NCBI GenBank assembly: GCA_031278965.1
Contig: JAITJJ010000017.1
Location: 1 to 18,354, forward strand
Origin: Deferribacteraceae bacterium
GTDB taxonomy: Bacteria > Chrysiogenota > Deferribacteres > Deferribacterales > JAISNW01
Direction of reading: 5' to 3'
Length of the DNA: 18,354 bases
This document shows, piece by piece, positions 1-18,228 of the stretch. Position 1 is the stretch's first letter. Each line of letters begins with the position of its first letter. Made by a program: the position numbers and the translations under genes. Below the pieces are notes generated by a model. It worked only from the letters and a program-made list of their open reading frames with translations, made no database searches and was not told the DNA's origin.

Positions 1-30
1 TATACATAATGACTTAAAAATGGAATTAAT
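1..30. repeat. Terminal repeat copy A. The reverse complement of nt 1-30 matches 18196-18227 (30 nt compared, 1 mismatch). The repeat runs off the left edge of the window.
   Basis: Direct reverse-complement comparison done by hand. Revcomp(1..31) = gattaattccatttttaagtcattatgtata, versus 18195..18227 = aattaattccatttttaagtcattatgcatata. Similarity ends sharply at nt 31 (interior side). Confidence 0.8.
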
Positions 31-31
31 C

Positions 32-557
32 GTAATTTGCCCGAAACACCCGACCTCTTTAACTTCGAAAGTCCCAAAATTATCAGCTCCAACTTATCTA
101 TAAATATACTCCCGCTCGCTCTGTTTTTCAATAGATAATGGTTAATACATTATTCTTCTTCCTTCAATAAAATAAAATCGGTTATCACTATCAAAATAAC
201 CTTCTTCAAAAACTTGTAAGAGCTCCCCTTCTCCAACTGTAATATGAGAGGCCTTATCAGATACAGTAAAAAACGTTCTCTTATCCCTTCCTGCGGAAAT
301 AACTGTATCTCCACATCGGCTTCTATACCCGATTTCATTATTGCCCTAATATCCATAACTTCCAACTTCAGTTCAGGAAATACCGGCAGAAGGTGAGTAT
401 CAGGAAATTCTATCTTTTCATATTCCTCGCTTGGAAGGTCGGTTACCGCTTGTAAAAAATCTCTGATAAGCTCCGGTCTTTTAGGGTCTGCCATTAAAGA
501 CTTGAAAACAATATCAAGTTTGGAAGATAAGAGCGGTTTCTCTCTATTCTCTGGCAT
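32..557 (-). pseudogene. Rpn-family recombination-promoting nuclease / PD-(D/E)XK 'putative transposase' (YhgA-like), disrupted. A 135-aa N-terminal ORF (150..557) ends at an in-frame TAA at 147-149. The same frame then stays open to the repeat boundary and window edge.
   Basis: N-terminus ...DIVFKSLMADPKRPELIRDFLQ... and the DVEIQ...ERFLLYL...LEKGSSYKFLKKVILIVITDFIL block match the conserved YhgA/Rpn (TIGR01784-like) core. Length is 135 aa versus ~300 aa typical. Reading past the TAA in the same frame gives another ~48 open codons (CINHYLLKNRASGSIFIDKLELIILGLSKLKR...). Confidence 0.55.
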
Positions 558-697
558 AATATACCGCCCATTAAAATATTCGATACCTTAAAGCAGCTTG
601 TATCTATTATCTTTCAAACTTAAATGCAAGATAAAATAGAAAATTTCTTCAATAAAACTAATAATTACGATTAACTCAATGTTACCAATAACATATG

Positions 698-717
698 ATA
701 CTTAATTAATTAAGTAT
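698..717. repeat. Perfect 20-bp palindrome ATACTTAATTAATTAAGTAT in the AT-rich non-coding spacer.
   Basis: Read directly. ATACTTAATT is the exact reverse complement of AATTAAGTAT. No ORF longer than 16 codons on either strand across 558..899. Confidence 0.6.
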
Positions 718-899
718 TAGTATATGTTTAGAGAAAACGTTCATTAAATAATGATCAGAAAAATCGTTAAAAGCACCCAACCCATAAAAACCCGAAATTA
801 ACTTTATTTACCATACTAATTAACCTTTTTTGTTGCAAGCATTTTTTTCAAAATGTTCCTAAAAAGCTGTCTATAAAAAAGGAAGTTTAAAGCGACACC

Positions 900-1364
900 T
901 TAAAAGAGCAGAAACCCGCTCTGAACAGGGCAATACAAAAGTTTTAATATTCGAAAAAAGAATACGGCATATTGAAAGATCCGGCGCACCATCTCTATGT
1001 GTGCGTTAAAATATGACGCTTTTCTCCCTGCGGAAAGCTCTATTATGGTCTGTTCTATTAAGGACGACTTGATTTTATCCAAATACATATCCTCAAAAAC
1101 CTTGCGGAAACGCTTAATCAGGTATAAATAGCTTTTAGCTGAGGTATTCAGCATATAGTGGGGGAGAAAATACTTATCCAAGTAGGTGGGGAAAGAGAGA
1201 TGTAACTGTTTTTGGACGCTCATCTCATACTTATACATGGCGTCCAGTTCTCGGGCTTCAGCGAGGTTTTTGGACGCAAAGGCAAGTTTAAATTTCCCGT
1301 CTACTTTGTGTTGGATGTAGTAGGATTTCTCCTTACCCTTATAACCGCACTTGCACTTTTCGGA
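900..1364 (-). pseudogene. Tyrosine recombinase / phage-type integrase fragment. It carries only the N-terminal arm-binding and SAM-like core-binding regions, with no catalytic domain and no start codon for the arm-binding part.
   Basis: The ORF 900..1238 (YLDKIKSSLIEQTIIELSAGRKASYFNAHIEMVRRIFQYA) fits the integrase core-binding (SAM-like) domain. The same frame is open upstream to a TAA at 1365-1367 and reads SEKCKCGYKGKEKSYYIQHKVDGKFKLAFASKNLAEARELDA, which fits the AP2-like arm-binding motif (GK.KSYY....DGK.K...F.SK.EAE) but has no Met. Downstream (558..899) is AT-rich and ORF-free, so the ~180-aa catalytic domain is absent. Confidence 0.5.
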
Positions 1365-1474
1365 TTATATCTCTCCAAAATGCCATACCATAACTTTCCG
1401 CCTGAAAGGGTTCCGGCGGTTCTAGCGCCCAATCCCCGATATTCGGAAGCGTTTAGTTTGTGTCATATAGTCCT

Positions 1475-2542
1475 TTATTCTATCTCTTTTACCCATCCGA
1501 ATTTATCTTCAATTATCCCGAGCTGAATTCCGGTTAGGGTATCATAGAATTTCTTTGTGAGTTCTCCCATCCCCCCGTCTCCCGGTATGATCTCCCTACC
1601 CCCCCAGACGAGTTTCCCCACGGGGCTTACAACGCAAGCGGTGCCGCTGCCGAAGGCTTCCTCAAGGGATCCCTTTTTATAGGCATCATATAATTCATCA
1701 ATGCTGATAGGTCGTTCAGCTACCTTTACTCCCATATCTTTTGCCAGAGTTATGATAGAATCTCTTGTGATCCCCGATAGGATAGTTCCCCCCAAGGACG
1801 GGGTAATAAGTTCTCCGGCTATCTTAAAGAATATGTTCATGCTGCCGACTTCTTCAATATATCTGTTTTCCCGCCCGTCAAGCCAGAGAACCTGACTGAA
1901 GCCGTTCTCATGTGCCAACTCGCTTGCTTTTAGGCTTATGGCATAATTAGCACCGGTTTTATGATTCCCGGTTCCTCCTCTGACGGAGCGCGCATATTCT
2001 GTTTCAATATATATATCCACTGGGGCGAGCCCTTTTGCGTAATAAGCGCCAACCGGAGAGAGGATAATATAGAGATAGTAGTCCTCCGCGGAGGCTATCC
2101 CCACATAGGGATCAATCCCGATATAGGCGGGGCGGATATAGAGGGATGTGCCGGGCGCTTTCGGTATCCACTCCTTCTCTATCTTTATAAGCTCATATAG
2201 GGAATTTAAAAGAAAATCCGCATCAAACGCCCGCATACTCATACGTTCTGCGGAAAGAGTCATTCGTTTCACATTGTCCCATGGGCGGAAGAGAAGAAAA
2301 CGACCGTCAGGAGAACGGTAAGCCTTTAACCCTTCAAATACCTCCTGTGCATAGTGGAGAACAAGGGCGGCAGGGGAGAGAACAAGATCCCCGTAGGGTT
2401 CTATCGCCGCATAAAACCAACCTTTTTCCCTGCTGCGTTTCATAAGCAGCATGTGGTCGGTAAATATTCGCCCAAAGCCTAGGTTGCTTTCATCAATCGG
2501 CTTCTCTTTCAATTTTTCCCGTTTTATAAACTCTAGCTTCAT
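1475..2542 (-). CDS. ilvE: Branched-chain amino acid aminotransferase (PLP fold type IV).
   Basis: 355 aa. N-terminal FGRIFTDHM motif, the EGLKAYR, YIRP and GTGNHKTGANY blocks, and an overall length typical of class-II BCATs. Confidence 0.9.
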   Translation of the reverse strand: MKLEFIKREKLKEKPIDESNLGFGRIFTDHMLLMKRSREKGWFYAAIEPYGDLVLSPAALVLHYAQEVFEGLKAYRSPDGRFLLFRPWDNVKRMTLSAERMSMRAFDADFLLNSLYELIKIEKEWIPKAPGTSLYIRPAYIGIDPYVGIASAEDYYLYIILSPVGAYYAKGLAPVDIYIETEYARSVRGGTGNHKTGANYAISLKASELAHENGFSQVLWLDGRENRYIEEVGSMNIFFKIAGELITPSLGGTILSGITRDSIITLAKDMGVKVAERPISIDELYDAYKKGSLEEAFGSGTACVVSPVGKLVWGGREIIPGDGGMGELTKKFYDTLTGIQLGIIEDKFGWVKEIE

Positions 2543-2584
2543 ATTGCAACAACTCTTCGTATTAGTTTTTGTCTCTATTTAAAT

Positions 2585-2613
2585 TTTATAACCCTTTGTG
2601 TTTAAATAATCAA
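2585..2613 (-). promoter_or_regulatory. Putative sigma70-type promoter for ilvE. On the minus strand it reads TTGATT - 17 nt - TATAAA.
   Basis: Read by eye in the 100-bp AT-rich gap between the larE-like stop (2642) and the ilvE start (2542). The -10 lies ~45 nt upstream of the ATG. Confidence 0.3.
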
Positions 2614-2641
2614 CTTCAACTTTACGGAGACGGATAGTTAA

Positions 2642-3472
2642 TTATCTAAAGTTTTCATTCATGCTGCCCATGCGGTAGCCTTGCAAATCCAGGGATACAT
2701 AGGTAAAGCCGAGGGCTTTAAATTTGGAAACCACTTTATCTCTGACGGCGCTCTCTGTTAAAACGGCAAAACCGTTTTCATCGGTCTCTATACGCGCCGT
2801 GTCCCTATGGCAGCGCACCCTCACTTGACGCACCCCTAAATCAAATATATATTGCTCCGCCGCCTCCACTTTGGAGAGCGCCTCCGTTGTGATTCTCTCC
2901 CCGTAGGGGAAACGGGACGCGAGGCAGGCAAAAGCGGGTTTATCCCAAGTGGAGAGGTTAAGTTGGCGGGAGAGCCGGCGGATTTCACCTTTTGTGAGCC
3001 CCGCCGCCTTCAGCGGACTAAGTATTCCGTCTTCCTTAACCGCTTCAAGACCCGGTCTATAGTCCAAGATATCGTCCGCATTGGAGCCTTCGGCGATATC
3101 TGTTATGCAGAGTTCCTCCGCCGCACTCCTAACCTTTGCAAAGAGGGCTTTTTTGCAAAGATAGCACCTGTTGTGCGGGTTATCGGCAAAGTTTCCTTCA
3201 TGCAACTCTTCTGTGCGGATGAGTATATGCTCCACCCCTTGTTCCCTGCAAAAAGATTGCGCCGCCTCAACTTCCCGCTCCGGAAAGAGAAGCGAGCGGG
3301 CTGTAATTGCCACTACCCTTCCGCCAATGGCACCCTTTGCGATTTTAAGGAGGAAGGCGGAATCTGTTCCGCCGGAAAATGCCACTGCCAGAGTTGGGAG
3401 GGTTTTTAAGAAGTCCGTCAGCGTTTTAAGTTTATCTGCCTCACCCGGCGCACTTATAATTACCCGCCGCAT
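2642..3472 (-). CDS. LarE-family PP-loop ATP pyrophosphatase (TIGR00268-type sulfur transferase). It carries a CxxC + Cys triad, suggesting a [4Fe-4S]-dependent, non-sacrificial type.
   Basis: 276 aa. PP-loop AFSGGTDS near the N-terminus. The DYRPGL, SRFPYG, VRVRCHRDTARIE and LGFTYVSLDLQGYRMGSMN blocks align along the full length with the Lactobacillus plantarum LarE sequence as I recall it. Cys103-x-x-Cys106 (CYLCK) plus Cys183 (FACLASRFPYG). Its start overlaps the ThiS stop by 13 nt. Confidence 0.85.
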   Translation of the reverse strand: MRRVIISAPGEADKLKTLTDFLKTLPTLAVAFSGGTDSAFLLKIAKGAIGGRVVAITARSLLFPEREVEAAQSFCREQGVEHILIRTEELHEGNFADNPHNRCYLCKKALFAKVRSAAEELCITDIAEGSNADDILDYRPGLEAVKEDGILSPLKAAGLTKGEIRRLSRQLNLSTWDKPAFACLASRFPYGERITTEALSKVEAAEQYIFDLGVRQVRVRCHRDTARIETDENGFAVLTESAVRDKVVSKFKALGFTYVSLDLQGYRMGSMNENFR

Positions 3473-3657
3473 ACGAAATTTACTATTTCCACAGTATCAG
3501 AGTCTTTTATATAAACCGTTCCAAAAGAATCTTTAGGCAGTATCTCCCCGTTCAGTTCCACCGCAACCGTATCTCTATTGATATTTCTCTCTTCCAAAAA
3601 TACCGCGACAGTTAAAGGTTCGCTTATATGAAAGTATTCTCCGTTAATCTGCGCCAT
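3460..3657 (-). CDS. thiS: ThiS/MoaD-family sulfur carrier protein, 65 aa, C-terminal Gly-Gly.
   Basis: Ubiquitin-like small protein ending ...VEIVNFVCGG. Pattern G.TV..LLE.........VAVELNGEI.P......T.I.D.D.VEIV.FV.GG matches ThiS. The symbol denotes the family only; the biological role here is uncertain. Confidence 0.75.
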   Translation of the reverse strand: MAQINGEYFHISEPLTVAVFLEERNINRDTVAVELNGEILPKDSFGTVYIKDSDTVEIVNFVCGG

Positions 3658-3660
3658 AAT

Positions 3661-4815
3661 TCACCTTAAGGCCTGTTCAAGATCGCTTAAAAGATCATCA
3701 GATGCTTCAAGACCCACGGAAAGGCGGAGAAATCTGTCATTTATCCCCAGTTTTTCAAGGAGTTCTTCCCCCATATCCGCATGGGTTTGGAGTTTTGGAA
3801 AGGTGATAAGCGATTCCGTTCCTCCCAGGCTTTCCGCAAAACTAAATACCTTTACCTTTTCAAGAACTTTAGGAAGAGCTTCCGCTCTTTTAAGCTCAAA
3901 GGAAACAATTGCCCCCGCTGACTTGGATTGGGCGGCAAGGAGAGAATAACCCGGAGCGTCTTTTAAACCGGGGTAATACACCTTAGCCACCGCAGTATGC
4001 CCTGTCAGATATTCCGCTATCTTCCGAGAGTTTTCCGTCTGACGCTCCATCCGCACCGAGAGACTTTTCAGGCTTCTTAGGAGCAACCAGGATTCAAACG
4101 GATTTAGAACCGCCCCCGCCGCATTCTGGATATATTTTAATTTTTCGGCTACCACCGCATCCTTGGCCGCCGCAAAACCTGCCAGAAGATCGTTATGCCC
4201 GCCCAAATATTTTGTGGCGCTGTAGACGGATATGTCCGCCCCCAATTCTATCGGGCAGAGATTGACGGAGGTAAGAAAAGTGTTGTCTATTATAAGTTTG
4301 GCGCTATTTTTATGGGCAAGCGCTGATAGATAGGGGATATCGCATACTTTTAAGAGTGGGTTGGTAGGAATCTCCGCGAAGATCGCCGAAAAAGGTTTTG
4401 CACCCTTTTCCTCCATAACTTTTTTGTCGGAAGTGTCCGCATAATCCGTCTCAATATGGGGGAAAAAGTTTTCCAATAAACGGAAAGTGCCGCCATAAAG
4501 ATCCTCCGATATAATAAGCCTCTCTCTTTTTGCTAAAGATTTATTGTCAGGGGGTTGAAAGAGTGCACGGAAAACCGCATCAAGCGCCGCCAAACCGCTG
4601 GAAAAAGCGTATGCTCCTGATGCCTGTTCCAGTTTTGCAAACAACTCCTCCAGAACAAAGCGAGTGGGGTTTGAAGTTCTTGTATAGTCATAGCCGGTGC
4701 TTTTGCCCAGAGCCGGATGTTTATATACCGCACTCTGATATAACGGCATACTAACCGCGCCAGTTCTGTAATCCCAACCGGAACCCGCCTGTGCCAATAG
4801 GGTTTCTGTGTCCAT
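3661..4815 (-). CDS. Cys/Met-metabolism PLP-dependent enzyme (cystathionine gamma-synthase / beta-lyase / O-acylhomoserine sulfhydrylase family).
   Basis: 384 aa. The blocks YTRTSNPTR, SGLAA, DNTF and the PLP-lysine motif SATKYLGGHNDLLAG align end to end with the E. coli MetB sequence as I recall it. It stops 3 nt before the ThiS start. Confidence 0.9.
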   Translation of the reverse strand: MDTETLLAQAGSGWDYRTGAVSMPLYQSAVYKHPALGKSTGYDYTRTSNPTRFVLEELFAKLEQASGAYAFSSGLAALDAVFRALFQPPDNKSLAKRERLIISEDLYGGTFRLLENFFPHIETDYADTSDKKVMEEKGAKPFSAIFAEIPTNPLLKVCDIPYLSALAHKNSAKLIIDNTFLTSVNLCPIELGADISVYSATKYLGGHNDLLAGFAAAKDAVVAEKLKYIQNAAGAVLNPFESWLLLRSLKSLSVRMERQTENSRKIAEYLTGHTAVAKVYYPGLKDAPGYSLLAAQSKSAGAIVSFELKRAEALPKVLEKVKVFSFAESLGGTESLITFPKLQTHADMGEELLEKLGINDRFLRLSVGLEASDDLLSDLEQALR

Positions 4816-4853
4816 AATCCCGCCGAAAGTATAAAGTATATATAGTCACTAGG

Positions 4854-4882
4854 ATATTATTTGAAATAGGAGAAAAAAGCAA
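4854..4882 (-). promoter_or_regulatory. Putative sigma70-type promoter for the PLP-enzyme/thiS/larE-like operon. On the minus strand it reads TTGCTT - 17 nt - TAATAT.
   Basis: Read by eye in the 95-bp gap upstream of the ATG at 4815. It leaves a leader of ~30-35 nt, too short for a SAM riboswitch or T-box. Confidence 0.35.
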
Positions 4883-4910
4883 TATGCTAATGGGGATACT
4901 GGGGATAAAA

Positions 4911-5623
4911 TTAAGGTTTTCTCACCCATAGGATTCTTTCAAACCCATAGAAGCTCCAAGTATAGGAGTGCACCCGTTTTAACAGCACTGAATACGGCTC
5001 AAACAGCAACCCTATCAACCAAGCTATGGGCGGTTTATAAAATTTTGATTCAAAAATAAGATCACATCCTTCATCACGAATTATTTTTTTAAGTTTCTCA
5101 AGATCTGGAGGGGTTCCGGTATCTGTTTTGTCGTCATAATAATTCAGAGTTCCACGTCGGCTTGGGAAATGGATACTTTTTTCAGACGGACATGAAAAAT
5201 AGAGCAAACCGCTTTTTTAAGCGCTTTAAGTATATTTATGAATGTTTTTCCCCTTTCAAAGCAGTGCTCCAAGTTATGGGCGGATATGACCACGTCAAAG
5301 CGATCTGCCATCTCCCCTATCTTATCGGCAAAAGCTGAAGGTGTAACGATTATAAATTCATCCAATATCAAACTACTCATATTGTAAATTCCCACGTCAA
5401 GCCTTGTATAATGGAAACTGGGTATGGCTCTTTTAACAGTTAATATCGCATCGTTACCACACCCTACATCCAAAATGGAAGGTTTCTGGAAAAGCTCTGA
5501 TACATGGTAGAGAAAAGACGCCCTCCCATGGGGTTTCACAATTTTTGCAAGTATTTTGCGCACTGCACGGGCTCCTTTTAACCGGAACATAGGATTTCTA
5601 TCTCCACTCCCCGTAGAAATCAA
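4911..5623 (-). pseudogene. Class I SAM-dependent methyltransferase split into two overlapping ORFs (5144..5623 and 4911..5207) by a frameshift in a homopolymer run.
   Basis: LDVGCGND (SAM motif I) and DVVISAHNLEH in the 5' ORF. The 3' ORF continues the fold (LYFSCPSEKS). Adding one A to the coding-strand A6 run (plus-strand T6 at 5213-5218) restores ...ILKALKKSGLLYFSCP... Confidence 0.6.
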
Positions 5624-6215
5624 GTTTAATCTCTTGTTTGCCCCAATTCATGGCAGCGGATTTGGGGCGACTTTTTTCCCAAACATACTTGGTAATCGTT
5701 CTAGGGCGGATAATGGTGGCAATATTCATAGAATTATCGGTGATTAGAGTTAGATCACCTTTCTGAAATACGGAGAGCCCCCCCAAAGTGCTGTAACCGT
5801 AAGTCGGATCCGGCAGCGGCGGCGGAAATGTCAGGGCGGAGTTCATAAGCCGCACCTCCCTCGCCCCTATAATCTGAGCAAGGTCGGATGTGATATCCTC
5901 TTCCCCCTTTATCGCCCTATACTTACCATTTTTTAGGGTGACTTCCGCTACAACCGCCCCGAAGAGCCCCAACACTTTAAGCTCAAGATCACCTCTGCAA
6001 TTCTTTTTCAATAAGCCGCTGAAACGCTGTTCATCGCCTTCAGCGGTATAGGAGATACGAACCTTGCCGCTATATTCGCATAAGGAAAGAGATTTTTCGC
6101 GAACCGCTCTCAGCGCCTCATCTTTGCTGACAGGCACCCTGTAAATTCCTGCACTGCGCCCCGCGCACCCAGCAAGAAACAAGAACACTAAAAAAAATAA
6201 GAGGAGTCTATGCAC
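5598..6215 (-). CDS. Lipoprotein, possibly a LolB/LolA-like beta-barrel fold.
   Basis: Signal peptide with lipobox (LFLAGC), 205 aa. Its start overlaps the TPR gene stop by 1 nt, and its 3' end overlaps the methyltransferase start by 26 nt. The fold guess comes only from the alternating hydrophobic beta pattern. Confidence 0.55.
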   Translation of the reverse strand: MHRLLLFFLVFLFLAGCAGRSAGIYRVPVSKDEALRAVREKSLSLCEYSGKVRISYTAEGDEQRFSGLLKKNCRGDLELKVLGLFGAVVAEVTLKNGKYRAIKGEEDITSDLAQIIGAREVRLMNSALTFPPPLPDPTYGYSTLGGLSVFQKGDLTLITDNSMNIATIIRPRTITKYVWEKSRPKSAAMNWGKQEIKLDFYGEWR

Positions 6216-7798
6216 TATTTTTTGGCGGCTTCAATCGCCTTAATATGTTCTGTAATCTCAGGGTCCCCTGGGTGGAGGGTATCCGCCCGGCGTATGTAAA
6301 CTTCAGCTTCCTTTAACTTCCCTCTTCTGAAGAGCAGCCACCCCTTGCTGTCCAGATAGGCGTAGTTTTCAGGCTCCTGTGCTAAGGCTTTATCAATAAG
6401 GATCTCCGCCTCATCTAAATTTATATTCATATCCGCATAAAGATACCCCAAAAAATTTTGGAGAGACGCGGAGCCCGGCTCAATCTTAAGAGCATCTTTT
6501 AAAACCTCAATGCACTCTTCATTCCTTTCAGCGTTGGCTAAATTAAAGGCGAGGGTTTGCATAAGCTCCACATTTTCAGGATAATCCTGCAACCCTTTTT
6601 TTAAAATCTCCACACCTTCATCATATTTTTTCGTTTCTATGTAAGCTGTGCCCATCAAGAAATAAAATTGAACATCCCGTTCTATGGGGTCAATCTTTTC
6701 AAGAACCGCAATAACTTTAGGATACTCTTCGGCTATAATAAGATTTATGGCGCTGCGGAGGCGGAGGATAGTATAATCCGGGAATAGTTGCAATCCTTCG
6801 TCAAATATCGCTTGAGCGGCGGCAGTATTATTATCTATGGCGGCGGCAGAAATCCCTGCCATGTAAAATAGTTGCGGGTCGGTCTTATTGTCTGCAAGGG
6901 CTATCCCGTAAGCGGTTTGAGCCGTTTCATAATCCGTCTTTTGAAATGCCATAGCCCCCACATATTTAAGAACCGCCTGCTTTGCTCTCCCTTTCATATT
7001 GGAGGCGGCTTGCATATAGTGGCGGACTGTGCGTTCATAATCTTGTTTGGAGCTGTAAATATCCCCCAGGAAGAGATCCGGCAGGGCATAATCCGGGTGC
7101 TTTTCCGCAATTATAAGGAGGTATTTTGTAGCGTTATCCGTATCGTTGTCTTTTATATAGAGGTCTGCCAGATGAACCAGAGCAGAGGTATCATCCCAGC
7201 GCTCATAGGCTTTTTTAAAATCGTCTGCCGCTTCTTTCTTTTTATTTGTATATGCGTAGAGAACGCCCCTTGAGCGGATAAATTCATATCTGTCAAACTC
7301 ATCAATAAGGATCGTATAGCCCTCTATCGCCTTTTCATACTCTTTTAAGCGTTCTGAAATCATGGCAACAGCCAGGATATTCGTTTCGGAGCGTTCTATT
7401 TTAAGAGCGGAATCAAAGTGACCAGCGGCCAGCTTATACCAGCGGGTTTCCTCTTCAATATTACTGGAGTTCGCCTCTCCAATCGCCGTACAAAACGCCC
7501 CAATCTGGAAGGCAAGCTCTTCATTCTCCGGGAAATGTTTTATGGCTGAGCTTAAAGTTTCATAAGCGGCTTTCATATCCCCCAAAGCGTACTCAATATT
7601 TGCCACCCGCAGATAGATTGTTGCGGACTTTTCCTTTTTCAATAATTTATTATACGCTTCAAGAGCCTCTTTATAAAGCCCTTCCTTTTCATATTGGGAG
7701 GCTTGAAGATAGAGGGCAACATCCGTATGTTCGCTTGCCGGTGTGACTATGTTTATTAATAAAAACGCCAGACAAAAGAAAATTGATAACTTTTTCAT
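6215..7798 (-). CDS. Secreted tetratricopeptide-repeat (TPR) protein.
   Basis: 527 aa with an N-terminal signal peptide (MKKLSIFFCLAFLLINIVTPAS). Many 34-aa TPR-like repeats with the A..Y/F...L...P pattern. Confidence 0.8.
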   Translation of the reverse strand: MKKLSIFFCLAFLLINIVTPASEHTDVALYLQASQYEKEGLYKEALEAYNKLLKKEKSATIYLRVANIEYALGDMKAAYETLSSAIKHFPENEELAFQIGAFCTAIGEANSSNIEEETRWYKLAAGHFDSALKIERSETNILAVAMISERLKEYEKAIEGYTILIDEFDRYEFIRSRGVLYAYTNKKKEAADDFKKAYERWDDTSALVHLADLYIKDNDTDNATKYLLIIAEKHPDYALPDLFLGDIYSSKQDYERTVRHYMQAASNMKGRAKQAVLKYVGAMAFQKTDYETAQTAYGIALADNKTDPQLFYMAGISAAAIDNNTAAAQAIFDEGLQLFPDYTILRLRSAINLIIAEEYPKVIAVLEKIDPIERDVQFYFLMGTAYIETKKYDEGVEILKKGLQDYPENVELMQTLAFNLANAERNEECIEVLKDALKIEPGSASLQNFLGYLYADMNINLDEAEILIDKALAQEPENYAYLDSKGWLLFRRGKLKEAEVYIRRADTLHPGDPEITEHIKAIEAAKK

Positions 7799-7847
7799 AA
7801 AAAATACCTATATAATCAGCGCTCAGATCGCCTTTAACAAAGGCAAA
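7788..7847. repeat. Direct repeat copy A. It is a degenerate duplicate of the last ~20 codons of accC (4-bp deletion, 2 substitutions) fused to the TPR gene start codon.
   Basis: Hand alignment. 7788-7847 (aactttttcataaaaaatacctatataatcagcgctcagatcgcctttaacaaaggcaaa) versus 8028-8091 (aactttttcataaaaaatacctatCTATataatcGgTgctcagatcgcctttaacaaaggcaaa). Confidence 0.8.
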
Positions 7848-8027
7848 TACTGCCCGAAAAAGTGCAATAACAAATGGTGAGCGAAAGCGGATTTACTCCG
7901 CTGCAACGAACCTGAATCGCTAGCTGAGCGTGAGCGAAGCGAATTATGCGACGAAGCGAGCAGCGAACGAGATTGCCATATCGGGGGATAGGTAGAAAGG
8001 TAACCTGTCCCCTTTCTGAACACTATT
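7848..8027. other. ~180-bp unique insert between the direct repeats. It is rich in GAGCGA(A)GCG motifs and has no credible ORF.
   Basis: The only ORF (7823..8038, 71 aa) is low-complexity S/R/L-rich and begins inside the duplicated repeat. The sequence holds several short hairpins. Confidence 0.5.
7984..8017 (+). terminator. Intrinsic-terminator-like hairpin on the plus strand: GGGGA-t-AGGT-agaaaggta-ACCT-g-TCCCC followed by TTTCT.
   Basis: Read by eye. A 9-bp interrupted GC-rich stem with a T-rich tail. No co-directional plus-strand gene is upstream, so the function is unclear. Confidence 0.25.
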
Positions 8028-8091
8028 AACTTTTTCATAAAAAATACCTATCTATATAATCGGTGCTCAGATCGCCTTTAACAAAGGCAAA
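8028..8091. repeat. Direct repeat copy B, the authentic accC 3' end.
   Basis: Encodes the accC C-terminus ...[18 protein letters not shown]. Confidence 0.8.
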
Positions 8092-9372
8092 ATGCTCCAA
8101 TATCTGCTTATGCAGAGGGATTGAAGTTTCTATCCCGTGCACTATAAATTCATCCAGAGAGCGTTTCATGCGGGCAATCGCCTCGTTTCGGTCTTCCCCG
8201 ATAACAATCAGCTTTGCTATCATGGAATCGTAATACGGCAAAACAGTATACCCTGTATATAGATTGGAATCAACCCTAACCCCATACCCTCCGGGGGAAT
8301 AGTATTCCGACACATTTCCTGGAGACGGTCGGAAAGAAACGGGATTTTCCGCATTTATACGGCACTCTATGGCATGCCCCAACAGTTTAATATCGTTTTG
8401 CACAATTTTCAGTTTCTCTCCGTCCGCGGTGCGTATCTGGAGCTTAATGAGATCCACCCCGGTGATCATCTCGGTTACGGCGTGCTCTACCTGTATGCGG
8501 GTGTTCATCTCCATAAAATAAAAGTTGCCGTGCTTATCTACCAAATATTCCAGCGTTCCCGCATTGCGATAACCCAGAGTTTTAACTGCATTTACGGAGA
8601 TTTCTCCCATCTTTTTGCGCAATTCCCCGCTTACACCGATGCTTGGGGCTTCCTCAAGGAGTTTCTGATGCCTCCGCTGAATGGAACACTCCCTTTCAAA
8701 AAAGTGAACCGCATTCCCGTAATGATCTCCAAATACCTGAACTTCTATATGCCTGGGGTTTTCTATAAATTTTTCAATATAAACCTCGTCATTGCCAAAT
8801 GCCTGCCCCGCCTCCCCTTTTGCAAGGTCAAAGTTATTGCGGAAAGAGATTTCATTATTGGCAACTCTCATTCCCTTCCCGCCTCCGCCAGCGCTTGCCT
8901 TAATTATGACTGGAAAACCGATGGAAGCGGCAAAATCCAGAGCCTCGTCAAGGGTTTTTACAACCCCGTCGCTTCCGGGCACCACAGGCATGCCAAGCGA
9001 GCGCATGGTCTCTTTTGCTGCAGACTTGTTGCCCATGATCTCAATATGCTCCGAAGACGGTCCCACAAAAGCAAATCCGCACTCCTCGCAGACTTTGGCA
9101 AACCCAGAATTCTCTGACAGAAAGCCGTAGCCTGGATGTATTGCGTCCGCTTGGGCTATTTCGGCGGCGGCAATAATATTTTTTATATTGCGGTAGCTTT
9201 TTGATGAATCCGCAGGACCGATGCAGACCGCCTCGTCTGCAAAAGCAACATGCAGGGATTCCTTGTCCACATCCGAATATACTGCAATACTGCGAATCCC
9301 CAGCTCTCGGCAAGCCCTTATTATTCTAAGGGCGATCTCGCCGCGATTTGCTATAAGGATTTTTTTGAACAT
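8035..9372 (-). CDS. accC: Acetyl-CoA carboxylase, biotin carboxylase subunit.
   Basis: 445 aa. [22 protein letters not shown]-terminus, ATP-grasp glycine-rich loop, and [10 protein letters not shown]. It sits directly downstream of accB with a TAATG overlap. Confidence 0.95.
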
Positions 9373-9812
9373 TATATGGCTTCCACCACAAAGATTGGCT
9401 GGCCGTATTCCACCGGATCCCCGTTTGCCACTAAAATATCAACTATGCGGCAACGGTAATCCGCCTCAATGGTATTCATTATCTTCATTGCCTCAATTAT
9501 GCAGAGGGTCTGCCCCTTTTCGGCTATATCTCCGGCTTTGACAAAAGGAGCTGCCCCTTGGGACGGCGCGGCGTAATATGTTCCTATCATCGGGGATTCA
9601 ATATAATTTCCTTCTTTCACGCTCCGCTCAACGGCTTTTTCTTCAACAACCGCTTCCTCTTTGGAGTGTGCAGGAACGGGCGTATAGTGTTCTTGGGAAA
9701 ATTTTGCGGCTTTGGACAGATATATGCGTTCCTCACCGCTTTCAACTTCAATCTCTGTTAAACCGGATCGGTCAAAGAAACGGATCAACTCTTTAACATC
9801 TTTTAGTTCCAA
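9372..9812 (-). CDS. accB: Acetyl-CoA carboxylase biotin carboxyl carrier protein.
   Basis: 146 aa with the C-terminal biotinyl domain and EAMKIMN biotinylation motif. Confidence 0.9.
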
Positions 9813-9827
9813 TTTAGTCTCCTAACT

Positions 9828-10403
9828 TTAATCAGCGCGTTTTATGCGCTCTATATACACCCCTTCCCTGGTATCAACCTTAATTATATCACCTATGTTG
9901 ATAAAGAGAGGAACGCTTACAATTCCGCCGGCGGATAGCTTTGCGGGTTTGGTGGCGCCTGTTACGGTGTCGCCTTTTAAGCCAGGGTCCGTTTCCACCA
10001 CCGGAAGTTCCACAAAGTTCGGGAGGGTGATCCCTATGGGAGCTTTATTAAATATCTGAACCGTAACTATGGTATTTTCCGCCATAAAGTCTTTGGCATC
10101 CCCCGCCACATCAACCGGAATGTCAAACTGCTCAAAGGAGACGCTGTCCATAAAATAGCAGTTATCCGCATCTCTGTAAAGATACTGCATCTGTTTTTGT
10201 TCAAAATCGGGCTGTTTAATCTTTTCGTCTGAAATATAGGTGCGCTCTATCACCCGCCCGGAGATCAGATTTTTTACCTTTGTGCGGACATTCGCTCCGC
10301 CGCGCCCCACCTTTATATGCAGATACTCCACAACGCTGTAAGGTTCGCCGTCTATTTCAATTTTGATTCCTTTCTTAAACTGGTTTGGGGTTATCACTGC
10401 CAT
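9828..10403 (-). CDS. efp: Translation elongation factor P. Arg sits at the tip of the beta3-beta4 loop (KVGRGGA).
   Basis: 191 aa. KOW-like domain I, central FMD..FEQ, C-terminal GDT..G..KPA and VP.FI..GD.I.VDTR motifs. Confidence 0.9.
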   Translation of the reverse strand: MAVITPNQFKKGIKIEIDGEPYSVVEYLHIKVGRGGANVRTKVKNLISGRVIERTYISDEKIKQPDFEQKQMQYLYRDADNCYFMDSVSFEQFDIPVDVAGDAKDFMAENTIVTVQIFNKAPIGITLPNFVELPVVETDPGLKGDTVTGATKPAKLSAGGIVSVPLFINIGDIIKVDTREGVYIERIKRAD

Positions 10404-10415
10404 AAACTCTCCTTC

Positions 10416-11465
10416 TTAGCTATTAAAAGAATATATATAATCATCAAGTCTGCTTAAATCCTCATATCCGTTTTCGATGACGCGGACAGTGTCTTCCAGG
10501 CGCACCCCAAACTCTTTTGGGAGATATATCCCCGGCTCAATAGTAAAGATCATATTTTGGACGATTATCTCTTCGCTTCCCGGTCGGATTGTTGGGGCCT
10601 CATGAACATCAACCCCCACTCCGTGCCCCGTGCCGTGCGAAAAATACTCTCCATATCCAAACTTTTCTATTACTCCTCTTGCCGCGGCATCAATGTCGCG
10701 GGCAACAACCCCCGGTTTTACCTTCTCTTTGGCGGCGTTTAATGCTTCCAGAACTATCTTTGCAACTTCGCCTGTCTTGGCGTTTCCCCCGTTATACAGG
10801 AAGCGGGTATAGTCACTTGTGTATAGTTTTTTTGTGCCAAAATCAACAATAATAGCATCGTCTATTGAAATAATCTTTTTGGTCGGTTCTCCGTGCGGAA
10901 GCGCCCCGCGGACTCCCGAAGCGGTTATGGTGGGAAAAGACAGGGATACCCCCAGTTTCTTCATATTATATTCAAGCGCCGCCGCCCAAGACGTTTCACT
11001 CTCTCCGCTTTTAAAACTCTCTAATGATGCCGTAAATGCTTTTGCAGCAATGGCGTATTGCTCCTTTACCGCAGCTGTCTCTTCAGCGCTCTTAACCGCC
11101 CTTAAAGTGGAAAGCGTTCCGTCTTCCAACGCAATTTCTGCACCATGAGCTGATAAAATCAGATAGTTTGAATAGACGCACCCCCTCTGTATTGTTATCT
11201 TTTTTCGTTTTTTTGCTAATTCGGTTAGATATTCGCTGTAACTTCTGGCTATTTCAATCTCCCATTCAGAGCCTAACAGTTCTTCGGCATAAAGCCTATA
11301 CCGGCTGTCGGTAATAAAGATTGGTTTTACCCCATCTAAAACGATATAAGCCGCGGAGCCGGTAAAACCGGTAAGCCAGCCTATATCAGAGAGAGATGTA
11401 ATAATATATCTCCCGTAATCTCTATCCGAAAGGGCGTTTAAAAGACGGTTAAGGTTATTCATCAA
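10416..11465 (-). CDS. M24-family Xaa-Pro aminopeptidase/dipeptidase (PepP/PepQ-like).
   Basis: 349 aa. The pita-bread metal-binding blocks HGTGHGVGVDVHE and the TIEPGIY...G.R.ED motif. Confidence 0.85.
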   Translation of the reverse strand: MMNNLNRLLNALSDRDYGRYIITSLSDIGWLTGFTGSAAYIVLDGVKPIFITDSRYRLYAEELLGSEWEIEIARSYSEYLTELAKKRKKITIQRGCVYSNYLILSAHGAEIALEDGTLSTLRAVKSAEETAAVKEQYAIAAKAFTASLESFKSGESETSWAAALEYNMKKLGVSLSFPTITASGVRGALPHGEPTKKIISIDDAIIVDFGTKKLYTSDYTRFLYNGGNAKTGEVAKIVLEALNAAKEKVKPGVVARDIDAAARGVIEKFGYGEYFSHGTGHGVGVDVHEAPTIRPGSEEIIVQNMIFTIEPGIYLPKEFGVRLEDTVRVIENGYEDLSRLDDYIYSFNS

Positions 11466-17798: not shown

Positions 17799-18228
17799 AT
17801 GGAACATGTTTTCTCTAAGGAATTTGAACTGCGTTACTTTGAAATGAACAAATATGGGATGGCTTCGCCGACAACCATTTTGACATTATTGAGAAGAGAC
17901 CGCGGCGGAGCATTGCCTCGCTATCGGGCACAGCCTCTACTCCCTTGAAAAACAGAATATCGGCTGGGTTTTAATTTCGGGCACAATAAATATGAATAGG
18001 CATCCGGGATATAAAGAGAGAGTAAAAATACAGACATGGCTTTCAAAATACACTTTGCTAAAGGGCTATAGGGAAAATATAATTCTTGATGAAGCCGGAA
18101 GTGTCATAGGTAAAGCAAAGGGGATATGGGCGTTTTATGATATTCAAAACAGAAAGCCCGCGCCTATATTTGAGGATATAAAAGCAAAATGGGGAATTAA
18201 TTCCATTTTTAAGTCATTATGCATATAA
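17799..18228 (+). pseudogene. Acyl-ACP thioesterase (FatA/B-type hotdog) remnant. It has a +1 frameshift near 17891-17895 and is truncated after about half the usual length, where the terminal repeat begins (~18196).
   Basis: Frame 1 reads MEHVFSKEFELRYFEMNKYGMASPTTILTLL. After one extra base in 'ttgAgaagag', frame 2 continues EETAAEHCLAIGHSLYSLEKQNIGWVLISGTINMNRHPGYKERVKIQTWLS...GIWAFYDIQNRKPAPIFEDI. This matches the first hotdog domain of acyl-ACP thioesterases; the second domain is absent. Confidence 0.65.
18196..18227. repeat. Terminal repeat copy B, inverted relative to 1-30. The element continues to the right, off the window.
   Basis: See copy A. Just downstream is a strong RBS (ACAGGAGGGG) and an ATG at 18260 that opens only a 19-codon ORF before a stop. 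Confidence 0.8.

Follow-up and report, generated by a model that had tools for sequence, protein, structure and literature searches.

A duplicated stop/start junction with a 179-nt insert between accC and a TPR-repeat gene of a Deferribacteraceae bacterium looks like a harmless mutational scar

Introduction

In the Deferribacteraceae bacterium studied here, 236 nt (positions 7799-8034) separate accC from a downstream gene for a TPR-repeat protein. How did this spacer arise, and does it have a role in the expression of either gene? An initial annotation of the locus described a structured insert of ~180 bp flanked by direct repeats of ~60 bp, which would have converted an ancestral ATGA stop/start overlap into a spacer. 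It offered two origins, a small non-autonomous element inserted with a long target duplication or a duplication that captured foreign DNA, and two possible functions, a plus-strand small RNA or an attenuator between accBC and the downstream genes. We analyzed the junction computationally. The window is the whole 18,354-nt MAG contig, which encodes the proteins MDR2400179.1 and MDR2400180.1, and all positions refer to it.

Results

Layout of the junction. The features of the locus are listed in Table 1. Both NCBI and JGI annotate the accC product as the acetyl-CoA carboxylase biotin carboxylase subunit. The last 57 nt of accC lie inside copy B of the repeat, including the TGA stop (8035-8037), which overlaps a duplicated ATG (8036-8038). 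The real start of the TPR gene is the ATG at 7796-7798, and it aligned with the starts of the orthologues. Copy B holds the functional accC 3' end and stop, followed by a duplicate of the TPR gene's initial 12 nt (ATGAAAAAGTTA, 8038 to 8027). Copy A holds a dead accC 3' end (7799-7847) and, at 7787-7798, the initial 12 nt of the TPR gene with the true ATG; the TPR gene now has its 5' leader and ribosome-binding region in the dead accC part. Sequence reading, repeat finding and pairwise alignment bore out the insert between two direct repeats, and the accC stop and the TPR start were confirmed to lie in the same repeated sequence on either side of the 236-bp spacer.

Table 1. Features of the accC-TPR junction, in window coordinates
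Feature	Position	Strand	Description
TPR-repeat protein gene	6215-7798	-	527 aa, intact; Pfam TPR families
Direct repeat copy A	7787-7847	-	61 nt
71-codon ORF (ORF71)	7823-8038	-	Starts at the duplicated ATG, spans the whole insert, stops at TGA 7823-7825
Unique insert	7848-8026		179 nt, between copies A and B, noncoding orphan
Small 6-bp hairpin	7886-7902		AGCGGA-UUUAC-UCCGCU; GCGGAUUUACUCCGC
(A)GCGA motif cluster	7927-7971	+	UCGC(U) on the sense RNA
GC-rich hairpin	7983-8013	+	11 bp, 9-nt loop, short tail UUUCU / UUCUG
Direct repeat copy B	8027-8091	-	65 nt; ancestral sequence and length
accC (biotin carboxylase)	8035-9372	-	445 aa, intact; Pfam Biotin_carb_N, CPSase_L_D2, Biotin_carb_C

Relatives carry an empty site. 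We compared the junction with those of seven related Deferribacteraceae contigs (L060-L066), whose accC genes are 72 to 81% identical to that of the window at the nucleotide level. The accC product is 445 aa long in the window and in all relatives, and the TPR orthologues (526 to 547 aa) lie directly downstream of accC. In all seven contigs the two genes overlap by exactly 4 nt (ATGA), without a spacer, and the sites are thus empty. These data support the ancestral overlap proposed initially. The same spacer conserved across relatives had been named as evidence against that proposal; instead, the insert is absent from every one of the seven. The 90% cluster of accC contains only three contigs, all from other species and all with empty sites. 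The nearest relative of the TPR gene in the genome collection (L001, 79% identity) ends before the junction. Without the insert, the junction would read ...GGTATTTTTTATGAAAAAGTTATCAATT....

Copy A is the derived copy. Pairwise alignment of copies A and B revealed two transitions and one 4-nt indel, and the longest exact match between them is only ~27 nt. On the minus strand, the substitutions appear as ...GCACCGAT... in copy B versus ...GCGCTGAT... in copy A; the indel is ATAGATAG in copy B versus ATAG in copy A, a slippage deletion of ATAG in the latter. Copy B has the bases of the relatives at all three positions and keeps accC at its full length; copy A has the derived state each time. The description of copy A as a degraded copy with a 4-bp deletion and two substitutions was therefore correct. 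Repeat finding reported the pair as the sole long direct repeat in the 18.3-kb window. A chance origin is excluded because all other direct repeats in the window measure 20 to 28 nt at 71 to 86% identity. Moreover, the copies have window-specific bases in common, for example, GATCTG where relatives have GAAATA, GAAGTC and others, and the junction was therefore duplicated in situ. Possible microhomology at the joints (TTTGCC, GTTA, and 10/16 matches beyond copy A) was only marginal.

The insert has no detectable copy or source in the searched sequences. The GC content of the insert is unremarkable (49.7% versus 45.5% for the window), and foreign composition was rejected as a sign of its origin. 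Using blastn-short, Smith-Waterman alignment against shuffles and nhmmer, we found neither an origin nor a copy of the insert in the window or in 108 fetched loci; the best scores were within the range of the shuffles, and a local origin from the 18-kb contig was rejected on this basis. The search for copies in the organism's own genome covered this contig alone. The comparison with genome and relatives suggested in the initial annotation thus yielded empty sites in the relatives but no second copy in the contig or the fetched loci. Viral and metagenome contigs were scanned with exact words of 18 to 23 nt, which diverged copies would escape: five words had no match in viral contigs, and a 20-mer had none in metagenome contigs. 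An 18-mer matched metagenome contigs 42 times, about the chance number estimated beforehand, and none of these matches extends beyond 21 nt. Three of the contigs (L076, L080, and L094) have a 21-nt hairpin in common with the insert and are otherwise unrelated to it. Searches of plasmid and phage collections (blastn, distant mode) also returned no match.

The ends of the insert do not form terminal inverted repeats. Comparison of the first 45 nt with the reverse complement of the last 45 gave a best local score of 13, which was equalled by 12.5% of 2,000 shuffles, and repeat finding also reports no such pair. A MITE was rejected for this lack of terminal inverted repeats. Tandem Repeats Finder detected no tandem repeats in the insert. 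The contig itself carries a 30-nt inverted repeat at its two ends, to which the insert is not similar. A truncated PDDEXK_2 "transposase" fragment and a frameshifted and truncated thioesterase gene are also present on the contig.

An open reading frame crosses the insert. Codon log-odds were negative in all six frames of the insert. ORF71 begins in an overlap with the accC stop and ends 24 nt before the real TPR ATG, and the 20 nt upstream of its start are identical to those upstream of the real TPR start. Its frame stays open in 9% of shuffles, and its codon score is -0.30, versus +0.25 ± 0.12 for real genes. ORF71 had no Pfam match, and its exact sequence is absent from a collection of 15 billion proteins. 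Neither NCBI nor JGI calls it as a gene; in the NCBI record, the flanking genes have consecutive accessions. A coding fragment or small protein in the insert was rejected, given the negative log-odds in every frame and the lack of a Pfam match. ORF71 is probably an accidental "relay" ORF and not a gene.

Structure and signals in the RNA. Folding of the insert was compared with that of shuffles, and the initial description as structured holds modestly (z of -2.34 on the plus strand and -1.44 on the minus strand). Both hairpins described initially exist. The GC-rich one is more stable on the plus strand (-18.6 versus -13.5 kcal/mol), but its reported T-tail amounts to no more than UUUCU, and the hairpin (9-nt loop, tail UUUCU) was not among the calls of the terminator scan. 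On the minus strand it is followed by CGAUAU, with no U-tract. It is at best a weak terminator-like site. For the smaller hairpin, both strands give roughly -9 to -10 kcal/mol, with a z of about -2. As for the richness in GAGCGA motifs, we confirmed a GCGA cluster that is the densest in the window: five GCGA occur in 60 nt (around 7930-7990), against a background of 50 in 18,354 nt. Because the cluster reads UCGC(U) in the sense RNA, the sense transcript is C-rich and G-poor at 7927-7971; over 7920-7999 its C/G ratio is 2.07, with 15 YC dinucleotides, a local maximum.

The covariance search proposed in the initial annotation gave no family. Rfam 15 had no match in the whole window at gathering thresholds, and at an E value of ≤10 over 7700-8150 the best candidate had an E value of 1.2, far below its gathering score. 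No promoter-like site was predicted on the plus strand upstream of the GC-rich hairpin, from 7400 to 7980. Likewise, no promoter-like or terminator-like site was predicted on the sense strand inside 7799-8034.

Discussion

The results suggest that the accC-TPR junction carries a genuine structural mutation specific to this lineage, as opposed to a dedicated genetic element, a reading that we consider moderately probable. It looks like a harmless mutational scar rather than a new genetic element. "Duplication that captured foreign DNA" is still the most fitting description of it, with "captured" taken as descriptive and not as a demonstrated origin. According to our model, an ancestor of this MAG had an ATGA overlap between accC and the TPR gene. 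A single DNA-level event, as we infer, would have brought 179 nt of unrelated noncoding DNA into the junction and duplicated ~61 to 65 nt of it. Insertion at widely staggered breaks, followed by fill-in, could have had this outcome; alternatively, a template switch during replication or repair could have left a short tandem duplication whose joint contains filler. The duplication of 61 to 65 nt far exceeds the usual length of target-site duplications, and nothing points to a particular enzyme. Both genes would have survived because the overlap lies within the duplicated stretch: copy B would supply the native C terminus and stop of accC, while copy A would supply the native 49-nt leader of the TPR gene, an AGGU Shine-Dalgarno-like motif and the start. 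The accC part of copy A would then have lost its coding role and subsequently gained the two transitions and the ATAG deletion.

Template switching and break repair can create, in a single event and with no element-encoded enzyme, a short tandem duplication with filler or a templated insertion at the joint. The junction resembles such duplications in that the duplicated segment directly flanks nonlocal DNA and occurs in one lineage only. It differs from a templated insertion in that the 18-kb contig yielded no template for the filler and the possible microhomology at the joints is marginal.

The likeliest present role of the 236 nt is that of a passive spacer within an efp-accB-accC-TPR transcript, whose genes are presumed to be cotranscribed. 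We base this reading on the result that neither a promoter nor an intrinsic terminator is predicted on the sense strand of the spacer. Ribosomes finishing accC may restart at the duplicated ATG, translate ORF71 and stop shortly before the TPR start. Such relay translation would keep polarity low and may be the reason that the insertion was tolerated. A purely passive reading explains neither the plus-strand folding (z of -2.3) nor the GCGA cluster, unique in the window. On a bolder proposal, a non-autonomous element of an undescribed type, or an undescribed insertion process, that makes ~60-nt target duplications and can enter overlaps without killing genes would have landed here once, and selection would have kept ORF71 as a relay for translational coupling between the TPR gene and accC; we consider this highly improbable.

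Mobile DNA could leave a similar footprint. A small non-autonomous transposable element with an unusually long target-site duplication would account for the clean insertion, the flanking direct duplication and the intact empty site in relatives, and the inverted repeat at the contig ends and the PDDEXK_2 fragment are other signs of mobile DNA on this contig. There is bacterial precedent for long and variable duplications, since insertions of IS1549 and IS1634 are flanked by direct repeats of 8 to 514 bp, reported without a mechanistic model (PMC2266710). The junction shares with them a direct target duplication of tens of bp (61 and 65 nt here). However, IS1549 and IS1634 are elements of 1.5 to 2 kb with a DDE transposase, terminal inverted repeats and many copies, whereas the insert is 179 nt long, lacks a coding ORF, a transposase and inverted ends, and occurs in a single copy among the window, the 108 loci, the viral and metagenome contigs and the plasmid and phage collections. 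It is also unlike the contig-end repeat. MITEs and REP/BIME sequences are likewise short, hairpin-containing, noncoding inserts between genes of one operon, but they occur in many copies, bear either terminal inverted repeats or a palindromic consensus, and duplicate 0 to 10 bp; in the sequences searched, the insert showed none of these traits. The non-autonomous element of the initial annotation is therefore unlikely. A comparably improbable explanation is that the repeats are attL and attR of a tyrosine-recombinase integrative element targeting the accC 3' end, of which an internal deletion left 179 nt, in the manner of a CIME. The 3' ends of conserved genes are frequent targets of integrative elements, which bring along a replacement end and have identity segments tens of bp long; their attL/attR sites, and those of CIMEs, are imperfect repeats at the 3' terminus of a housekeeping gene, which the replacement copy keeps intact. 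The junction fits this pattern, with imperfect repeats of tens of bp exactly at the 3' end of a conserved gene, a reconstituted accC of 445 aa and both genes preserved, and the repeated (A)GCGA motifs could be arm-type sites of a recombinase. Against this origin, no integrase, cargo or ORF with coding signal lies between the repeats, whose interior is only 179 nt; none of the seven relatives has an element or island at the site; no viral contig or phage matched; and two events would be required, integration and then a deletion sparing both att copies.

The remaining explanations concern what the insert does and whether it exists in the organism. As a functional RNA, it would encode a plus-strand antisense small RNA ending at the GC-rich hairpin, or act as a sense attenuator, reducing the expression of the TPR gene compared with accBC, for instance by Rho-dependent termination via the UCGC tract. 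The greater stability of the hairpin on the plus strand, the plus-strand folding and the C-rich, YC-rich sense RNA point in this direction. However, the small RNA finds no Rfam family even at the relaxed threshold, no plus-strand promoter-like site upstream and only a weak, uncalled terminator. The attenuator lacks an intrinsic terminator on the sense strand, where no U-tract follows the hairpin, and is left with the C-rich, G-poor stretch, which ORF71, if translated, would shield from Rho. With no homologues there is no covariation support, and the relatives manage without the insert. Both functions suggested initially are therefore very unlikely. We regard it as most unlikely that the junction is an assembly or amplification chimera. 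Such an artifact is conceivable in a window that is an entire MAG contig, for which an independent assembly with the insert was not found and in which the damaged thioesterase gene is another irregularity. On the other hand, the copies are not concatenated allelic variants, as the copy A version would frameshift accC, and all differences in copy A are derived, which fits drift after duplication. Their longest exact match is unlikely to confuse an assembler, as ~27 nt is shorter than the words that assemblers commonly use, and the 179 nt of novel sequence need real reads.

As a probable mutational scar, the junction has little further consequence, and nothing points to a novel family of elements, an RNA gene or a regulatory device. 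It would gain in value only through the discovery of further copies flanked by comparably long duplications, or through proof that the ORF71 relay maintains coupling. Copy A shows the effect of relaxed selection on a copy that lost its coding role. The locus is a clean natural example of a 4-nt stop/start overlap that was pulled apart with damage to neither gene: duplication of the overlapped junction gives accC and the TPR gene one copy each.

Duplication of the accC/TPR junction

The initial annotation described direct repeats of about 60 bp around an insert of about 180 bp, opening a 236-bp spacer between accC and the TPR gene. Inspection of the sequence, a repeat finder and pairwise alignment reproduced this arrangement nearly to the base. 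The string ...GGTATTTTTTATGAAAAAGTTA... is present on the minus strand in both repeats; its TGA at 8035-8037 is the accC stop in copy B, and its ATG at 7796-7798 is the TPR start in copy A. Aligned to each other, the copies show two substitutions and one 4-nt indel. The spacer measures 236 nt, and the net gain at the junction is 240 nt, made up of 179 nt of new sequence and the 61-nt duplicate. The remaining direct repeats in the window are at most 28 nt long (71 to 86% identity), and none comes near this pair. Beyond the clean repeat, pairwise alignment introduces a 2-nt gap and then pairs the flanks of copy A (7848-7869, TACTGCCCGAAAAAGTGC) and copy B (8092-8113, ATGCTCCAATATCTGC) with about 10 identities in 16 positions. 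Microhomology at the joint or chance could account for this, or the duplication may once have reached further and decayed more strongly there.

Features of the accC/TPR region and related sequences (window coordinates unless a contig is named)
Feature	Position	Strand	Remarks
M24 peptidase	10416-11465	-	Pfam/ORF annotation
efp	9828-10403	-	Pfam/ORF annotation
accB	9372-9812	-	Pfam/ORF annotation
accC	8035-9372	-	Pfam/ORF annotation; 445 aa
Direct repeat copy B, 65 nt	8027-8091		Holds accC stop; repeat finder and pairwise alignment
Unrelated DNA between repeats (insert), 179 nt	7848-8026
Hairpin	7983-8013		-18.6 kcal/mol on + (z -2.9), -13.5 on -; fold prediction
Hairpin	7886-7902		Fold prediction
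Direct repeat copy A, 61 nt	7787-7847		Holds TPR start; repeat finder and pairwise alignment
TPR protein gene, 527 aa	6215-7798	-	Pfam/ORF annotation
205-aa protein gene	5598-6215	-	No Pfam match
Metagenome sequence on L076	626-643 and 3389-3406
Metagenome sequence on L080	1292-1309
Metagenome sequence on L094	1506-1523

Through a TPR protein search and the 90% cluster of accC, we reached seven related Deferribacteraceae contigs (L060 to L066). All seven share an overlap of exactly 4 nt between accC and the TPR gene, which confirmed the proposed ancestral overlap of the accC TGA with the TPR ATG. The aligned junctions read ...AGGTATTTTTTATGAAAAAG... or near variants without the spacer, as an empty site should. 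accC of the window shares 72 to 81% nucleotide identity with these contigs (about 45 to 54% at third positions). Judged by their sequences, they are not close relatives of the window genome, so the insertion can be dated only to somewhere on the branch leading to it. Within the genome collection, the TPR protein has its nearest relative at 79% identity, on a contig that ends before the junction.

Bases common to both copies but found in no relative, such as GGCGATCTGAGC (GGTGAAATAAGC, GGCGAAGTCGGC and others in the relatives), indicate that the junction was duplicated within this lineage and was not brought in from a distant accC. Where the copies disagree, which is at three positions, copy B has the sequence of the relatives (GCACCGAT and GATAGG), and it preserves the accC length of 445 aa that is universal among them. 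The changes in copy A are A>G, C>T and the loss of one ATAGATAG tandem unit, and its description as a degraded accC 3' end therefore held. Change in this copy alone, whose accC-derived part no longer codes, is predicted by relaxed selection after duplication in situ. A concatenation of two strain alleles was argued against, as a copy A allele would frameshift accC. Copy B carries a promoter-like site antisense to accC (8032-8060, plus strand; TTTTCA-17 nt-TATAAT, 10 of 12 matches); its counterpart in copy A (7792-7816, plus strand) is lost, the 4-nt deletion having cut its spacer to 13 nt.

Gene order from the M24 peptidase through efp, accB, accC and TPR to a 203- to 223-aa gene without a Pfam match is conserved between the window and the relatives. 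Downstream (window 1-5600 compared with L060, L062, L063 and L065), the content differs in nearly every relative; variants include tautomerase with HtrA, ispE-prs-pth, and FlaG with amidohydrolases. On this comparison of gene content, the region immediately 3' of the 205-aa gene is a rearrangement hotspot.

Content of the insert

The insert had been called structured. Two clean hairpins are indeed present, but the overall fold is only modestly better than that of shuffles (z = -2.34 on plus, -1.44 on minus); for the complete spacer, to which copy A adds a hairpin of its own, the values are -3.35 and -2.90, respectively. The reported richness in GAGCGA motifs was borne out by an (A)GCGA cluster at 7927-7971, the densest in the window, which renders the sense RNA C-rich and G-poor (C/G 2.07). 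A proposed plus-strand small RNA is unsupported: Rfam gave no match for the insert, which is thus not a known RNA, a scan found no plus-strand promoter-like site upstream of the 7983-8013 hairpin, and the terminator scan did not call this hairpin. Neither promoter nor terminator was found on the sense strand within the spacer, and lack of such a terminator leaves an attenuator between accBC and the downstream genes without support.

The insert is non-coding: in each of the six frames its codon log-odds are negative, between -0.22 and -0.57, compared to +0.25 ± 0.12 for in-frame chunks of window genes. With a GC content of 49.7% versus 45.5%, it is not compositionally foreign. Templating from the contig was rejected (best local alignments 27, versus 25.2 ± 2.4 for shuffles). 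Terminal inverted repeats were looked for and none were found, which speaks against a MITE. No second copy exists in the window, which covers one entire contig (18,354 nt) of a MAG from an uncultured member of the Deferribacteraceae and is the only part of the source genome searched, or in 108 comparison loci, and blastn against plasmids and phages gave no match. In scans that detect exact words only, five words had no match in viral contigs, a 20-mer had none in metagenome contigs, and an 18-mer had 42 in the latter, about the chance expectation estimated beforehand, with none reaching past 21 nt. Three unrelated metagenome contigs, MWWE01001074.1 (L076), MWWB01006901.1 (L080) and MWVZ01003127.1 (L094), carry a mutually near-identical sequence over 280 nt aligned; L076 has two occurrences, separated by 2763 nt. 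All that this sequence has in common with the insert is the 21-nt hairpin AAAGCGGATTTACTCCGCTGC, and it may represent a separate repeat element within those samples.

Elsewhere on the contig, a 30-nt inverted repeat (97% complementary) lies at its start and near its end (1-30 and 18196-18225; TATACATAATGACTTAAAAATGGAATTAAT / ATTAATTCCATTTTTAAGTCATTATGCATA). It was not found in any comparison locus and is unrelated to the insert; probably it marks the terminus of a multi-copy element with terminal inverted repeats, at which the assembly broke on either side. An acyl-ACP thioesterase fragment (17800-18228, plus strand; PF01643 positions 65-129 of 131) has its N-terminal part in a different frame, implying a frameshift near 17870-17880, and its frame stops at the beginning of the repeat arm; the repeat element likely cut the gene, leaving a pseudogene. 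A truncated 135-aa ORF (150-557, minus strand) matches PDDEXK_2, the PD-(D/E)XK nuclease family transposase of Rpn/YhgA-like type (profile positions 2-122 of 229, E 1.5e-19), and adds to the signs that DNA on this contig is mobile or decaying.

Origin and consequences

The suggestion of a small mobile element found no support, the insert being single-copy in our searches and without terminal inverted repeats. Since it is single-copy and lacks any element hallmarks, we favor a single enzyme-independent or repair-type event behind both insertion and duplication. Captured DNA could have been enclosed by fill-in of staggered breaks; alternatively, a template switch could have supplied filler to a short tandem duplication. 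Insertion by an IS1549/IS1634-type element is possible, as this is the one bacterial group reported with similarly long duplications (8 to 514 bp; PMC2266710); here, however, there is no transposase, inverted end or second copy. The repeats could also be attL and attR left behind by an integrative element with its target at the 3' end of accC, which their length and position fit; however, a recombinase is lacking, and no element of this kind is present in any of the seven relatives. A chimera from assembly or amplification is improbable. We conclude that the insert and its repeats are the scar of an insertion plus duplication specific to this lineage.

The native accC end is retained, as are 49 nt of native sequence in front of the TPR gene, with an AGGU motif 7 nt upstream of the ATG. 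Since the duplicated ATG (8036-8038) overlaps the accC stop and shares its 20-nt context with the real TPR start, initiation there should proceed as at the ancestral TPR start. Its 71-codon frame (7823-8038) crosses the entire insert, leaving 24 nt between its end and the true TPR ATG. Shuffled sequences keep this frame open in 9% of cases; it shows no coding signature or Pfam match and is absent from the called genes. We read it as an accident, which may nevertheless carry ribosomes over the spacer and limit polarity. The scar is probably neutral and of low general interest, save as a tidy illustration of separating overlapping genes.
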